Source of the DNA: Promethearchaeota archaeon
GTDB lineage: Archaea; Asgardarchaeota; Lokiarchaeia; Sigyniarchaeales; SOKP01
Direction of reading: 5' to 3'
NCBI GenBank assembly: GCA_016839585.1
Contig: JAEOTZ010000042.1
Coordinates: 3,859-67,858 of the forward strand
Length of the DNA: 64,000 nt
The position numbers were made by a program, and so were the translations under genes. Within the stretch, counting starts at the first letter, position 1; every line of letters starts with the position of its first letter. Below the pieces are notes generated by a model. It did no database searches. It worked only from the letters and a program-made list of their open reading frames with translations, and was not told the DNA's origin. Positions 34,221 to 39,843 of the stretch are shown piece by piece.

Positions 34221-35579
34221 TTAAATTAAGTCTATTCGACCTATAGCTCTAAAAGGTAGTTCTATATTGAATTCATCATAGTTATATATTCGTCTACCAT
34301 CTACAAGATTTGGGTTTTTCATCAATTTCTTAAAATCAATGGGATTTAATGTTTTAAACTCTTCCCACTCAGTAATTAGGAAAGCACATTCAGAATCTTT
34401 TAATGCATCTTCTACGGTTCCAGCATATTGAATTTTATCTCCAAATACTTCTCTAGCTGTTTGATTCGCTTTAGGGTCATAACCTATAATATCAGTAACA
34501 TTTCGTTTTAATAATTCATTAACAATCCTAATACTTGCTGCTTCTCTCATATCATCTGTGCCTGGTTTAAATGAAAGACCTAAAAGTGTTACTCTTCTCC
34601 CTGCTAATTTACCAGCTAATTCTTCACCAATATTAACAATTTTAACAGCCTGATCATCATTTATACCCAGAACTGCTTCTAATAATCTAGAATGATATCC
34701 CTTAGCTTTTGCCCAAGCTTTAATAGCATTAACATCTTTATGAAAGCAAGAACCACCAAAACCTACTCCGGCACCCAAGAATCTTGGATTAAGTCTGTAA
34801 TCTAACCCTACACCCTTCATAACTTGGACGACGTCAACATTGGGTACTAGTTGAGCAAAATTAGCAAATTCATTGGCATAACTAATTTTTGTAGAGAGCA
34901 AGCAATTATTTCCATATTTTACTAATTCCGCACTTTCAAGATTCATTCGTAAAATAGGGCAGTTTTGAAGGTGTTCTCCATAGAAATATTCATAAAATTC
35001 TTGAAGCATTGCCCCACTCCTTTCATCAAATTCTCCAATAACGATTCTATCAGGATGTAAAGTATCTTCAATTGACCGACCTTCAGCTAAAAATTCTGGT
35101 TGCATACATAATCCAAAATCTTTCCCTGGTTCTTTTCCTGATATTTCTCTAATTATTTTGCCTACTAAATTTCTCGTCGTTCCGGGAACAACTGTAGATC
35201 TGACAACAACCAAATGATATTTATCTTTTTTCTTTAAGCTTTCACCTATTTCTCTTGCTGTACTCTCAATGAAACTTAGATCAATACTTTTATCTTCTCT
35301 CATTGGAGTTCCTTGAGTAATCATTGAAATGTCTGTTTCCATTACTGCTCTTATAGGATCTGTAAGGCATTGTAAAAGGTGGGGCATTTTTCTCTTAATT
35401 TCATCCATTATTTCTTGTAGGCCTGCTTCAAAAAAAGGAGCTTTACCTTCATTAATCTTCGCTGCCTTTTTTTCATTATGAGTAGAAGCTAATACTTTGA
35501 TATCTTTGTTAGCAAAGCAAGCCGCTGAGCAAAGTCCAATAAATCCAGTCCCTAGGATTGAAACACTATATTTATACAT
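34221..35579 (-). CDS. ugd: Nucleotide-sugar 6-dehydrogenase (UDP-glucose/UDP-ManNAc dehydrogenase family)
   Basis: 452 aa. It has an N-terminal Rossmann fold (ILGTGFIGL) and the catalytic Cys region GFGGSCFHKDV. Substrate specificity cannot be called. Confidence 0.8.
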   Translation of the reverse strand: MYKYSVSILGTGFIGLCSAACFANKDIKVLASTHNEKKAAKINEGKAPFFEAGLQEIMDEIKRKMPHLLQCLTDPIRAVMETDISMITQGTPMREDKSIDLSFIESTAREIGESLKKKDKYHLVVVRSTVVPGTTRNLVGKIIREISGKEPGKDFGLCMQPEFLAEGRSIEDTLHPDRIVIGEFDERSGAMLQEFYEYFYGEHLQNCPILRMNLESAELVKYGNNCLLSTKISYANEFANFAQLVPNVDVVQVMKGVGLDYRLNPRFLGAGVGFGGSCFHKDVNAIKAWAKAKGYHSRLLEAVLGINDDQAVKIVNIGEELAGKLAGRRVTLLGLSFKPGTDDMREAASIRIVNELLKRNVTDIIGYDPKANQTAREVFGDKIQYAGTVEDALKDSECAFLITEWEEFKTLNPIDFKKLMKNPNLVDGRRIYNYDEFNIELPFRAIGRIDLI

Positions 35580-35740
35580 AATAATTAGTTTTTTTTTTTA
35601 ATTATATTAGTTTATAATATTAAAGTTTTAATATTGTTTTCCGCATTAAATTAAATTATTCTGAAAAAGAAATTTCAAAAATCTTAAAATAATAAGAAAA
35701 TAGTATTACATTTATGAAATTTCAAAGGAGATTTTAGAAA

Positions 35741-37027
35741 ATGAAAGAATTAAGAAAAAAACTAAAAATCACAAGTAAAGCGTTAGATACAGTAAATAAA
35801 TTTCTTGTTGATGAAAATAATATTCTAATCAATAATTTATTTGAAATAATCGAAAAATATGGTGGCGTTGATGAAATCAATAAGAAAGCTAAAGAAGCAA
35901 GTGAATTAGATAATCTACTAAGTAAACTAAAAAATAAGAAGCCTGATTATGCGCAGGATATAGAATGGTTAATTGAACAAAGAGATAATAACGCTTTTAT
36001 TAGCATACCTGAATATAGAAAGAAAATCCTGGGAGAAAAATTTTCAGAAATGAGCTTTAATAAGGATTATGCTGTTACTTTAGAGCTTTCAGCTTGCCAG
36101 TACTTTCCATTTTTTATGGATATAGCAAGAGCCGCTATTGAAGATCAGAATTTAATGCCAGGTAGAATAATTCGTGTAAGAAAAATGAAGGAACAAGAAG
36201 TAGATGGGGATCTATTAGCAATGGCGACTGCTATGCAAATTATAGGGGCAACCTATGTCGAAACACTTGATACCAAGGGAACTGCTCCTGGTCCTGATGG
36301 ATTTCCTGTAAATGTCCATTTAGGAGGACCAGAAACTATAACGGGTTATTTTGGTGGAGTGGGGCAACCTAATGATTTTGCTTTAAAGTGGGTTGATGAA
36401 TATCTTTATTATTATACTAATTATGGTATCAAGCAAGTTCTAAATGTTAATCCAGGAACGGTTTTACTAGGATATTTTATTCATAAATTAGGGATTAATA
36501 ACGAATTTAAAATATCAGTATATATGGGAAATGATAATCCATATTCTTGCCTGTGGACTCTTTTAACAGCTAAACTATTCGCCAGAGAAGACGGAACAAG
36601 TCCGTTGATTGGTTTTAATCTTGCTAACTCAGTAAATAATGAAACAATTGAACTCACTGCTCATATTAGAAAAGCATTTGATTTTGAAGATGTTGTCAGA
36701 TTTGAACATCATGTGATTGAAACACAGAAAAGTATTGTACGCCAACCATATGATCGAAGAGAAGATTTATTGGAAGTTGCTATGAAAGTGAAAAATGTCA
36801 GTGCTAAACATGAAGGCGGTGATGTAGAAATAGATAAGAATAGAGAACATCCTTCAGATATTTTAGATTATTTTAGGGATAAGCAAGAGATTATTGATTC
36901 AGGTCATTGGGAATTTATGCGTAGAAATCACCTTGATAGATATATTGCTATTAATACTACGGCTAAAGTATTAACTGAAAACGGTATTGATATTATTGCT
37001 GCCCAAAATCTTCATCAAGTTGATTAA
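35741..37027 (+). CDS. Conserved-looking hypothetical protein (no family recognised), immediately upstream of the DapA-Fae fusion
   Basis: 428 aa with a strong AGGAG SD. It is globular and non-repetitive, and ends 22 nt before the next gene. Confidence 0.4.
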   Translation: MKELRKKLKITSKALDTVNKFLVDENNILINNLFEIIEKYGGVDEINKKAKEASELDNLLSKLKNKKPDYAQDIEWLIEQRDNNAFISIPEYRKKILGEKFSEMSFNKDYAVTLELSACQYFPFFMDIARAAIEDQNLMPGRIIRVRKMKEQEVDGDLLAMATAMQIIGATYVETLDTKGTAPGPDGFPVNVHLGGPETITGYFGGVGQPNDFALKWVDEYLYYYTNYGIKQVLNVNPGTVLLGYFIHKLGINNEFKISVYMGNDNPYSCLWTLLTAKLFAREDGTSPLIGFNLANSVNNETIELTAHIRKAFDFEDVVRFEHHVIETQKSIVRQPYDRREDLLEVAMKVKNVSAKHEGGDVEIDKNREHPSDILDYFRDKQEIIDSGHWEFMRRNHLDRYIAINTTAKVLTENGIDIIAAQNLHQVD

Positions 37028-37049
37028 ATAATAGAGGTTCGAAGAAAAG

Positions 37050-38537
37050 ATGAGTAAGTTTGACTTTAGACCCTCGGGAGTCATGCCAGCAATGGTAACA
37101 CCATTTAATAAAGATGAATCGATAAACGAAGACCAATTAAGAAATTTAGTTAATCATCTTATTGAACAAGGGGTTACAGGATTAGTCCCTGTCGGTACTA
37201 CCGGAGAATTTGTAAATATGACTTTTGAGGAACGTATAAAAGTAATTGAAATTGTAGTGGATGAAACAAATGGTAGAGTTCCGGTTATAGCAGGAACAGG
37301 AGAGACAGGAACTAAGTTAGTAATTGATGCTACTAAGGCCGCAACTGATATTGGTGCTGATGCAGTTTTAATAGTTACACCGTATTATTTAAAGCCAAAG
37401 GCAAAAGGGTTATATGATCATTACTTTACAATTACTGAAAAAACAGACATCCCTATAGTACTATATAATATCCCTGCTTGTACGGGCGTAGAATTGCCTT
37501 GGACTGTTGTGGAAGATCTCGTAGATATCGAAAATATTGTTGCTATTAAAGATTCTAGTGGTGATTATAAATACTTTTCAGCATTATTGGAAAAAGTAAG
37601 TGATAAGATTTCAGTCCTTATTGGATGGGATGAAAATGTTCTAGGAGCTTTAGCTGGAGGTGCTGCTGGCTGTATCTTAGGTTCTGCAAATGTGTTCCCT
37701 AAAATTTGGCTCGAAATTTATAATCATGTAAAAAATAATCGTCTAGAAGAAGCTCAAGTACTTCAAAAGAAGGTCCAAAAAATAGCAAGACTTTTAATAA
37801 ACTCAGGAGCATTAGGAGTTAAATCTTGTTTAAATATAATGAAAGTACCGGTTGGAAAAACTAGACAGCCCATTGTTATAGGAGACGCTCTTTCTTATGA
37901 AATAAAAGATGAATTAAGAGTTGAGCTTGAGAAATTAGGATTGATAGAAAAAATAGAAATCCAATTTGAATTAGGAGAAAAAACACTAACAAGTCGTTTT
38001 TATGCTGTTGGAATTACACCGAGGAAAATCATAAATTTCAAGTTAAAAGTCGGGGAATCTTTAGTAGGAAATCGCGTTGAACTTGCACATATTGATCTTT
38101 TAATTGGTGAAAAAGATGGACCTGTTGGACAAGCTTACGCTCAAGCTTTAACTAGTCCTGAAGAAGGACGTGAAGGACTTCAGGTCATACTTGAGCCTAA
38201 TATGCAAGTAAAACCACCCACAATCATGATTCCTACAGTTCGTCCGGTCTCTCTACGTCACGCAAGTTTAACTTATGGGCCTGCTCAAGCAGCAATAGCT
38301 AAAGCAGTGATGCAATGTGTAGAAGATGGAATTCTTCCAAAAGAATTAGCTGATGACATTGTTTTAATTGTAAATGTTTTTGTTCATCCAAGTGCGAGTG
38401 CAAGAAAAAGAATCTTCATTAACAATTATAAGGCAACTCGTAATGCGATTCGAAAAGCAATGGAAGGCTTACCAACTGTAGAAGATGGTATTGAAAATGC
38501 TGAAAGTGCCAGACATCCATTTAGAAACGATCCTTAA
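37050..38537 (+). CDS. Fusion protein: DapA/DHDPS-family class I (pyruvate-dependent) aldolase plus formaldehyde-activating enzyme (Fae) domain
   Basis: Residues 1-~300 show GTTGE, YNIP and the Schiff-base Lys context AIKDSSG. Residues ~330-495 read VGESLVGNRVELAHIDLLIG...YGPAQAAIAKAV..DGILP..ADD...VNVFVHP.A....I..NY.ATR.AI..A...HPF, which is collinear with Fae. Confidence 0.8.
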   Translation: MSKFDFRPSGVMPAMVTPFNKDESINEDQLRNLVNHLIEQGVTGLVPVGTTGEFVNMTFEERIKVIEIVVDETNGRVPVIAGTGETGTKLVIDATKAATDIGADAVLIVTPYYLKPKAKGLYDHYFTITEKTDIPIVLYNIPACTGVELPWTVVEDLVDIENIVAIKDSSGDYKYFSALLEKVSDKISVLIGWDENVLGALAGGAAGCILGSANVFPKIWLEIYNHVKNNRLEEAQVLQKKVQKIARLLINSGALGVKSCLNIMKVPVGKTRQPIVIGDALSYEIKDELRVELEKLGLIEKIEIQFELGEKTLTSRFYAVGITPRKIINFKLKVGESLVGNRVELAHIDLLIGEKDGPVGQAYAQALTSPEEGREGLQVILEPNMQVKPPTIMIPTVRPVSLRHASLTYGPAQAAIAKAVMQCVEDGILPKELADDIVLIVNVFVHPSASARKRIFINNYKATRNAIRKAMEGLPTVEDGIENAESARHPFRNDP

Positions 38538-38726
38538 AAAGTGAGTACCTTTTTTTCATCTTTTTATATTTTATTAATTTAAATCTTTTAAAATATTAAA
38601 TTAGTAAACTCTTTTTATAGAAATCTAATACATTATAAAGCGTATATTGATAATTTCAAGAATTTATTTATAATTAATATTAATAGTAAATTTAAAAATA
38701 ATTGAATAATAGAGCTGAACTATAAA

Positions 38727-39209
38727 ATGACACAGGTAATCGATTTGGAAGTAGGAAATAAAGCACCTGAATTTACACTCCCAGATAAAGATAATAAAGA
38801 AGTATCTTTAAGAGACTTTAAAGGAAAATATGTTATACTTTATTTTTACCCGAAAGATAATACGCCAGCATGCACAACTGAGGCTATTGGTTTTACAGGA
38901 ATTTTACCAGCATTACAAAAATTAGATGCTGTTGTTATTGGAATTAGTCCTGATACACCTGAATCTCATGCGAAATTCATTGAAAAGAAAAATTTGAATG
39001 TAATTCTCTTAAGTGATGTGGATAAAAAAGTAATTAAAAAATATGGTAAATGGGGAAAGAAAAAATTTAGGGGGAAAGAGTATATAGGGGTTATTCGAAG
39101 TACTTTTTTAATAGATCCAGATGGAAAGATTGCACACATTTGGCCTAAGGTTTCTGTAAAAGGGCATCCAGAAGATGTTGAAAGAGTATTAAAAGAATTA
39201 ATAAAATAA
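38727..39209 (+). CDS. bcp: Peroxiredoxin, Bcp type (thiol peroxidase)
   Basis: 160 aa. It has FYPKDNTPACTTEA peroxidatic Cys context and typical Bcp length. Confidence 0.85.
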   Translation: MTQVIDLEVGNKAPEFTLPDKDNKEVSLRDFKGKYVILYFYPKDNTPACTTEAIGFTGILPALQKLDAVVIGISPDTPESHAKFIEKKNLNVILLSDVDKKVIKKYGKWGKKKFRGKEYIGVIRSTFLIDPDGKIAHIWPKVSVKGHPEDVERVLKELIK

Positions 39210-39276
39210 GTTTCTTTTTTATCTTATATATTCTATGAAATCTATTTAATTAGAAAAATCAAATTAATTTTATATT

Positions 39277-39843
39277 ATGAATGTTATAGATGCTATAAAA
39301 GAAAGGAGAGCCTTCCGGTCTCTTGAATTTGTTGACATCTCAGATGAATTAATTAATGACTTGGCTAGTAAAGCACAAATTGCTCCTTCATGTATGAACA
39401 AGCAACCTTGGAATTTTATTTTTATAAGAGAAAAAGAACAACTAGAAAGATTATTTACAACTCTCTCGACTGGAAATAAATGGGTTGAAAAAGCTTCCAT
39501 GATAATTGCTGTATTAAGTAAACCTGATAATGATTGTATAATTGGAGAACGCCTTTATTACTTATTTGATACAGGATTAGCAACTGCATTTATAATTCTA
39601 CGTGCTACAGAATTGGGTCTAGTTGCGCATCCTATTGCTGGCTTTAAAGAAGAAGAAGCAAAGAAGATTCTGAATATCCCTGAAGACTTTAGGCTTATTA
39701 CCCTAGTCAATATTGGAAAACATTCTGAAACCATTAATCCAGTTCTTTCTGAAGCAATGAAATTAGGAGAGAAACAAAGACCTCCAAGAAAAGATTTAGA
39801 GGAGTTTGTTTTTATAAACAGTTATAAAAGTAACTCTAAATAA
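39277..39843 (+). CDS. Nitroreductase family protein
   Basis: 188 aa. It has the RRAFRS N-terminal motif, APSCMNKQPWNFI and the family length. Confidence 0.75.
   Translation: MNVIDAIKERRAFRSLEFVDISDELINDLASKAQIAPSCMNKQPWNFIFIREKEQLERLFTTLSTGNKWVEKASMIIAVLSKPDNDCIIGERLYYLFDTGLATAFIILRATELGLVAHPIAGFKEEEAKKILNIPEDFRLITLVNIGKHSETINPVLSEAMKLGEKQRPPRKDLEEFVFINSYKSNSK

Follow-up and report, generated by a model that had tools for sequence, protein, structure and literature searches.

A conserved aldolase–Fae fusion of Asgard archaea, annotated as DapA, probably links a 2-oxoacid aldol reaction to tetrahydromethanopterin and pairs with an undescribed TIM-barrel family

The assayed precedent for a formaldehyde-activating enzyme (Fae) joined to a formaldehyde-handling enzyme is Fae-Hps (NF009833; for example Mhun1628), a fusion of Fae with a carbon–carbon lyase that releases or fixes formaldehyde and exchanges it with tetrahydromethanopterin (H4MPT); in archaea it has been proposed to work toward formaldehyde release (PMC5241800). 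PanB (PF02548), a single metal-dependent domain using tetrahydrofolate, moves a hydroxymethyl group between a methylene-pterin and C3 of a 2-oxoacid, and partly rescued the function of an aldolase for 4-hydroxy-2-oxobutanoate (HOB) in P. putida (10.1101/2025.02.17.638773). In the engineered homoserine cycle, pyruvate and formaldehyde are condensed to HOB, which is transaminated to homoserine (PMC8879981). Here we analyse a 64,000-nucleotide stretch of a Promethearchaeota archaeon genome (assembly GCA_016839585.1, contig JAEOTZ010000042.1, positions 3,859 to 67,858; hereafter the window), which encodes a 495-amino-acid (aa) protein made of a class I aldolase domain of the DHDPS/NAL superfamily followed by a Fae domain and, directly upstream, a 428-aa protein. 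The fusion is very probably an H4MPT-dependent aldolase/hydroxymethyltransferase that acts on a C4 2-oxoacid and works together with an undescribed enzyme family.

The fusion is encoded by a single uninterrupted open reading frame at positions 37050-38537, as the initial annotation of this DNA had read it. The DHDPS domain (PF00701) covers aa 8-293 (E 1e-78, 285 of the 289 profile positions), and the superfamily hallmarks that had been recognized in the N-terminal part were all located there: GTTGE(F) at aa 49-54, YNIP at 139-142 and AIKDSSG at 165-171, the last with the Schiff-base Lys167 (nt 37548-37550). The C-terminal part had been assigned to Fae from about nt 38037 onward; the assignment holds, with an envelope that begins at nt 38049 (PF08714, aa 334-491, E 3.5e-55, 186.8 bits versus a cut-off of 27), contains the motifs AHIDL (aa 346-350) and RHPF (488-491) and is seconded by the Fae model TIGR03126 (186.6 bits, cut-off 118). 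Clustering at 90% identity gives more than 120 protein clusters with both domains, every one 495-496 aa in length and 84-95% identical, nearly all from Asgard metagenome-assembled genomes and labelled '4-hydroxy-tetrahydrodipicolinate synthase'. Full-length, stop-free matches are present in 89 of the 201 Asgard genomes sampled. Together, these two counts rule out a sequencing or assembly artefact at the junction, a concern raised with the initial annotation, which had envisaged two genes separated by a stop in related genomes. Literature searches on the fusion and on Fae in Asgard archaea returned no paper describing such a protein, which the initial annotation had likewise failed to recognize. 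Judging from sequence comparisons, the fusion is real, conserved, mis-annotated and of a new architecture.

Fusions of lower similarity (41-54% identity) are present in further Asgard families, one of which has tandem pairs, and as tandem pairs in two Anaerolineae. The tandem aldolase–Fae pairs lie at L017:8008-10919, L041:3372-6488 and L053:10270-13171 (Asgard family f7 and the two Anaerolineae). One copy in each pair has a degenerate Fae domain, in which the AHIDL His is replaced by Ser or Gln and the C-terminus is shortened, which suggests hetero-oligomers of one catalytic and one structural Fae.

The likeness of the fusion to Fae-Hps lies in the joining of Fae to a carbon–carbon lyase that would exchange formaldehyde with H4MPT. 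In the fusion, however, a class I pyruvate-type aldolase is N-terminal to Fae and the proposed substrate is a 2-oxoacid, whereas in Fae-Hps the hexulose-phosphate synthase is C-terminal and the substrate is a sugar phosphate. Against the Fae-Hps model NF009833 the fusion scores 149.8 bits (cut-off 274) and aligns through its Fae part only (profile positions 2-161 of 392). A canonical Fae-Hps is also encoded in this genome (512 bits), and its Fae half is 43% identical to the Fae domain of the fusion. The latter aligns end to end with M. extorquens Fae (PDB 1Y5Y), AHIDL matching AHIDL, and places His347 and Asp349 at the positions of His22 and Asp24, the catalytic residues of that enzyme. By this comparison the Fae part looks functional. 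Methenyl-H4MPT cyclohydrolase (Mch) is encoded here (348 bits) and in 83 of the 89 fusion-bearing Asgard genomes; four of the six without it are 74-82% complete and the others 90% and 98%. Neither Mch nor the fusion occurs in Asgard families f5 and f22.

The database label DapA follows from the NCBIfam dapA model TIGR00674, against which the fusion scores 251.1 bits, above the cut-off of 206.15. The fusion shares with DapA its superfamily, its fold and the catalytic Lys/Tyr/Thr residues: Tyr139, Thr50/51 and Tyr113 are retained besides Lys167, and an alignment of 120 close homologues with E. coli DapA shows Thr44, Tyr107, Tyr133 and Lys161 (E. coli DapA numbering) in every one. It differs at Arg138 (same numbering), which in DapA binds the carboxylate of aspartate semialdehyde. 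This residue is Arg in E. coli DapA and in this genome's own DapA, but Cys in all 120 homologues (here Cys144, nt 37479-37481) and Cys, Val or Leu in 18 of 18 diverse fusions, among which Phe54 is invariant. Further DapA positions are altered (Ser48 to Phe, Asp187 to Trp and Asn248 to Gly, E. coli numbering), the lysine allosteric residues are replaced, and Phe54 and Trp193 line the aldehyde pocket of the aldolase domain. A separate dapA copy (342.5 bits) lies directly beside dapB on contig C88; its product is only 30% identical to the fusion, whose own locus has no dap gene context. The replacement of Arg138 by Cys, the loss of the allosteric site and the presence of a true dapA-dapB pair elsewhere indicate that the aldolase domain is not a lysine-pathway DapA. 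The residues and the context are the two points on which the initial annotation had made this assignment hinge. It is very improbable that the protein is a genuine lysine-pathway DapA merely carrying a Fae domain, even though it passes the dapA model and its best matches among PDB sequences are DapA enzymes.

A third DHDPS-family protein of this genome, 692 aa long, is encoded outside the window (L003:193-2271, minus strand, contig C62). Its Schiff-base Lys is replaced by Asn and its Tyr133 by His, it is fused to a kinase-like (APH/SrkA-type) domain, and it may be a pseudo-enzyme or a sensor.

The fusion gene and its neighbours are arranged as follows in the window, which is AT-rich (31% G+C):
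34221-35579, minus strand: UDP-glucose dehydrogenase (ugd-like) gene, divergent upstream neighbour, identified by Pfam
35580-35740, plus strand: AT-rich intergenic stretch upstream of the 428-aa gene and divergent from the ugd-like gene, probable operon promoter as judged from sequence, with GGAG at 35727-35730
35741-37027, plus strand: gene for the 428-aa protein (N-terminal helical domain, aa 1-103, then a (beta/alpha)8 barrel)
37028-37049, plus strand: 22-nt spacer with the ribosome-binding element AGAGGT at 37033-37038
37050-38537, plus strand: gene for the 495-aa aldolase–Fae fusion, a single open frame
37071-37928, plus strand: class I aldolase domain (DHDPS/NAL superfamily; Pfam, aa 8-293)
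37929-38048, plus strand: interdomain linker of about 40 residues between the Pfam envelopes, variable in the alignment of diverse fusions
38049-38522, plus strand: Fae domain (Pfam, aa 334-491)
38545-38565, plus strand: T-rich tract right behind the fusion stop codon, probable transcript end (putative terminator)

The 428-aa gene and the fusion gene look like a bicistronic operon, because the spacer between them is 22 nt long, the T-rich tract and a gap of 189 nt separate the fusion stop codon from the next gene, a peroxiredoxin, and the upstream gene is divergent. Both the short gap and the Shine-Dalgarno element before the fusion had been noticed in the initial annotation. Downstream of the operon, positions 38727-39843 hold a thioredoxin-dependent thiol peroxidase (bcp-type) gene and a small nitroreductase-family gene, beyond which a TetR regulator gene lies on the opposite strand; no operon link was found for these downstream genes.

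The initial annotation had supposed that the upstream gene might belong to the same pathway. Indeed, it is a conserved operon partner: in 27 of 29 genomes of Asgard families f1, f2 and f27 the co-oriented fusion gene follows the 428-aa gene within 40 nt, and the adjacency holds even where the fusion is only 48% identical. In bacteria, the equivalent position beside the 428-aa family is held by a PanB paralogue. A scan of one genome per prokaryote species yielded 581 stretches matching the family, and the best 80 of these, on which the bacterial locus counts are based, come mostly from Chloroflexota and in part from Bipolaricaulota, Zixibacteria, Syntrophobacterales, Armatimonadota and Thermotogae. 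Of the 80 loci, 57 have a co-oriented PanB-family gene immediately upstream and 5 more end at a contig edge; the 428-aa relatives at the 80 loci share 68-81% identity with P0241, a homologue of the bacterial type. In all four bacterial genomes tested, the PanB adjacent to the 428-aa gene is a second, lower-scoring copy (332-341 bits), which still passes the panB model, and the higher-scoring copy (386-404 bits) adjoins panC. At two Anaerolineae loci the 428-aa family stands beside two tandem DHDPS–Fae fusions instead of PanB, and a search of one of the two genomes found no PanB.

Other lineages connect the 428-aa family to homoserine metabolism. In representative loci of Asgard families f5 and f22, the 428-aa gene is followed by genes for an aminotransferase (4-nt overlap), the sole homoserine dehydrogenase (HomDH), an aldehyde:ferredoxin oxidoreductase (AOR) and a PatB-type C-S lyase; the sole HomDH gene lies 2-8 kb downstream of the 428-aa gene on the same strand in at least 18 genomes of f5, f22 and f24. 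In family f7, a threonine-synthase–PadR fusion gene is divergent from the 428-aa gene in at least 13 genomes, and the tandem aldolase–Fae pair is encoded elsewhere. Bacterial 428-aa clusters include MTHFR and a deaminating-type Glu/Leu/Phe/Val-type (ELFV) dehydrogenase, and locus L012 has transporter, regulator and kinase genes. In 8 bacterial loci, a 621-aa ELFV dehydrogenase with CBS domains follows PanB and the 428-aa gene. The copy in this genome (L114:7493-9358, minus strand, contig C61, 621 aa) is 61% identical to the bacterial (Chloroflexota) proteins and, among Asgards, such a copy occurs only in the four operon-bearing f1 genera; it could be a third component performing amination or deamination. 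Since the 428-aa family is itself 60-70% identical between Asgard archaea and Chloroflexota, the data point to inter-domain transfer of a gene set. The 428-aa enzyme thus pairs with the fusion, an H4MPT-type C1 module, where H4MPT is present, with PanB, a folate-type hydroxymethyltransferase, in bacteria, and with homoserine-node enzymes in lineages that use neither. The simplest explanation has the fusion and the bacterial PanB paralogue carrying out one type of reaction, with HOB, the keto acid of homoserine, as the common metabolite.

Threonine-synthase-like proteins of 472-492 aa are encoded at L016:5715-7193 (minus strand) in f7 and at L106:1204-2622 (minus strand, contig C60) in this genome. 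The f7 protein carries a PadR DNA-binding domain at its C-terminus and may be a ligand-sensing regulator rather than, or besides, an enzyme.

Based on these pairings, we propose that the aldolase domain would use a Schiff base on Lys167 to interconvert a 4-hydroxy-2-oxoacid with a 2-oxoacid and formaldehyde, HOB and pyruvate being the likeliest pair, and that the Fae domain would reversibly combine the released formaldehyde with H4MPT to 5,10-methylene-H4MPT. The net reaction would be HOB + H4MPT <-> pyruvate + methylene-H4MPT + H2O and, by analogy with PanB, probably lies near equilibrium. The fusion would thereby act as a two-domain, H4MPT-using analogue of PanB that keeps toxic formaldehyde on the enzyme, and the 428-aa TIM-barrel partner would make or consume the same C4 keto acid. 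PanB shares this proposed net reaction with the fusion but has no sequence or fold relationship to it, and its metal-dependent, tetrahydrofolate-using domain contrasts with the two domains, the Schiff-base chemistry and the H4MPT predicted here. The aldolases RhmA and GarL likewise convert pyruvate and formaldehyde to HOB on the way to homoserine (PMC8879981, 10.1101/2025.02.17.638773); they are promiscuous class II enzymes fed with free formaldehyde in engineered bacteria, whereas the fusion would be a natural, dedicated class I aldolase coupled to a C1 carrier. Passage of C1 units between a 2-oxoacid aldol reaction and methylene-H4MPT, advanced as speculation in the initial annotation, is supported by the replacement of the fusion by a PanB paralogue, by its co-occurrence with Mch and by its complementarity with HomDH, described below. 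Taken as a whole, H4MPT-linked hydroxymethyl transfer between HOB and pyruvate by the fusion and its partner appears reasonably probable.

The fusion could instead act on another 2-oxoacid (2-oxobutanoate, or 2-oxoisovalerate as in PanB) or release a larger aldehyde, with Fae serving as a safety catch or a pentameric scaffold. The PanB family membership of the bacterial counterpart, which passes the panB model, the uninterpreted pocket residues Phe54 and Trp193, and the degenerate Fae copies of the tandem pairs would fit this. We nevertheless consider it unlikely: the genome already has a PanB, the bacterial partner PanB is separate from the panB-panC cluster, the links to HomDH, aminotransferase and ThrC–PadR point to a C4 skeleton of the homoserine type, this protein retains the catalytic residues of Fae, and the distribution of the fusion follows that of Mch. 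An H4MPT-dependent ketopantoate synthase filling in for a missing PanB was rejected, since the PanB of this genome is strong; that role is also disfavoured by the bacterial 428-aa-adjacent PanB being an extra paralogue, with panC beside the other copy.

The HomDH Pfam model, which matches in 14 of 14 control genomes, has no match in this genome (99% complete) or in any of the 10 other genomes of its genus. Counts over the 201 Asgard genomes are as follows:
Fusion present: HomDH present in 13 genomes, HomDH absent in 76
Fusion absent: HomDH present in 61 genomes, HomDH absent in 51

The fusion and HomDH are largely mutually exclusive. Within family f1, genera g1 and g3 have the fusion and lack HomDH, the opposite holds for g2, g6, g7 and g8, both genes occur in g5, and g4 is mixed; these repeated genus-level switches are stronger evidence than P values. 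Furthermore, the fusion or HomDH is found in 92 of the 103 genomes with the 428-aa gene; those with neither are mostly incomplete.

Several observations weigh against HOB/pyruvate transfer, in addition to the dapA model score given above. Relatives among the 201 genomes are not independent, so Fisher tests on these counts overstate significance; HomDH accompanies the fusion in 13 genomes, and the 428-aa gene is missing from 22 fusion-bearing ones. The HOB model does not account for one distant 428-aa homologue whose neighbours are an IlvD/Edd dehydratase and Dak1/Dak2. The genome's own PanB means that a pantoate role cannot be argued from need. This genome also has only a sub-threshold ThrC-family gene and no ThrB, which makes its need for homoserine uncertain. 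Finally, we infer the substrate from gene neighbours only, and both channelling and direction are presumed.

With regard to direction, we lean slightly toward HOB formation feeding homoserine in genomes that lack HomDH, the degradative direction being nearly as likely. In the assimilatory version, which we regard as possible, the fusion would make HOB from pyruvate and methylene-H4MPT, an aminotransferase or the ELFV-CBS dehydrogenase would aminate it to homoserine, replacing HomDH, and the 428-aa enzyme would turn HOB into a further product. The anticorrelation of the fusion with HomDH, including the switches within f1, argues for this version, as do families f12 and f13, in which the fusion occurs with ThrC-like genes but HomDH and the 428-aa gene are lacking, and the present genome, which is 99% complete and has no HomDH. 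The analogue PanB works biosynthetically, and the engineered homoserine cycle shows that the route is feasible (PMC8879981). On the other hand, this genome has no ThrB and only the sub-threshold ThrC-family gene, two HcyBio genes supply homocysteine from aspartate semialdehyde so that a demand for homoserine is unproven, and the role of the 428-aa protein is left undefined.

The amino-acid genes bear on the opposite direction as well. Neither a ThrB-type homoserine kinase nor MetE matched in this genome despite its estimated completeness of 99%; dapA-dapB, PanB and Fae-Hps are present. An ApgM-like gene near the fusion in f13, considered as the 'proposed homoserine kinase', fits the ApgM mutase model and not TIGR02535, and was rejected as such a kinase. 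In the degradative version, the 428-aa enzyme would make HOB, for example from 4-methylthio-2-oxobutanoate derived from methionine, via elimination and hydration; the fusion would cleave it to pyruvate and hand the formaldehyde to H4MPT, and lineages without H4MPT would route HOB to aspartate via aminotransferase, HomDH and AOR. This version gives the 428-aa protein a clear role, and agrees with the lack of ThrB, the sub-threshold ThrC-family gene and the HcyBio route of this genome, with AOR and the PatB C-S lyase in the f22 cluster, with the MTHFR and deaminating-type ELFV dehydrogenase near bacterial family members and the transporter, regulator and kinase genes of L012, and with the formaldehyde release proposed for archaeal Fae-Hps (PMC5241800). 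It leaves the fusion without a 428-aa gene in f12 and f13 unexplained, its precursor is a guess, and the gene order (428-aa gene then fusion in archaea versus PanB then 428-aa gene in bacteria) gives no clue to direction; we regard it as possible too, though slightly less so.

The partner itself has no family that the initial annotation could name, and our searches concur: the 428-aa protein has no Pfam or NCBIfam match even at E 10, five members of its family have no Pfam match at E 10, the family profile has no match among PDB sequences, and a protein-language-model atlas search with the protein returned nothing. Its AlphaFold (AF2) model (pLDDT 89.9) comprises a helical N-terminal domain and a (beta/alpha)8 barrel. 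Structure searches with this model singled out no clear relative, only TIM barrels in general. Foldseek was run on the whole model and on the barrel alone, and class II metal-dependent aldolases came out best in both, although the best matches (class II FBP aldolase, YdjI, SqiA and UxaE) are weak (E ~1e-5, TM 0.33-0.47). The exhaustive aligner VIA-align returned a flat list of TIM barrels (Z 11-12), with the PDB U32 entry 5d88 at Z 11.3, and the ESM Atlas returned U32-like barrels (TM 0.70-0.75 by target, rmsd 2.8-3.0 over ~266 residues). Peptidase U32 has no Pfam match at E 10, and two alignments of the 428-aa family contain no conserved cysteine set such as ligates the Fe-S cluster in U32 hydroxylases; the family conserves numerous Arg, His, Asp and Glu residues as well as Lys257, its one invariant Lys. 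We class the protein as representing a new family of barrel enzymes, probably metal-dependent; our best guess at its chemistry, made with low confidence, is elimination-addition at C4 of a metal-bound 2-oxoacid.

The family is single-copy in 103 of the 201 Asgard genomes. Two other roles for it were discarded. As a substitute for homoserine kinase it finds no support: ThrB is missing in 186 of the 201 Asgard genomes regardless of the 428-aa gene, and four f22 genomes have both. As a homocysteine-forming enzyme it would be unneeded, given the two HcyBio genes. A 385-aa homologue, 49% identical to the 428-aa protein, is encoded at L010:8001-9158 on a 41-kb ENA contig flagged by VirSorter, among small phage-like genes (ERCC4, Vsr, clamp-loader-like AAA, ThiF and radical SAM), and may be a virus-carried metabolic gene.

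Hundreds of database entries name the fusion DapA, which inflates lysine-pathway calls in Asgard reconstructions and hides what would be a C1-linked reaction. The 428-aa protein defines a large unnamed enzyme family common to Asgard archaea and Chloroflexota. We tentatively suggest, as a prospect that falls well short of probable, that carrier-bound C1 units are joined to pyruvate in nature to yield HOB, both in Asgard archaea and, via the PanB paralogue, in many Chloroflexota and other anaerobes. Such a pathway would replace HomDH as the entry to homoserine metabolism, form a natural equivalent of the engineered homoserine cycle and run through an undescribed TIM-barrel family present in ~580 GTDB species genomes. 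If true, the H4MPT C1 pool, pyruvate and the C4 homoserine node would be linked in nature in a way so far seen only as a design in synthetic methylotrophy, and this would explain how many Asgard genomes cope without homoserine dehydrogenase.

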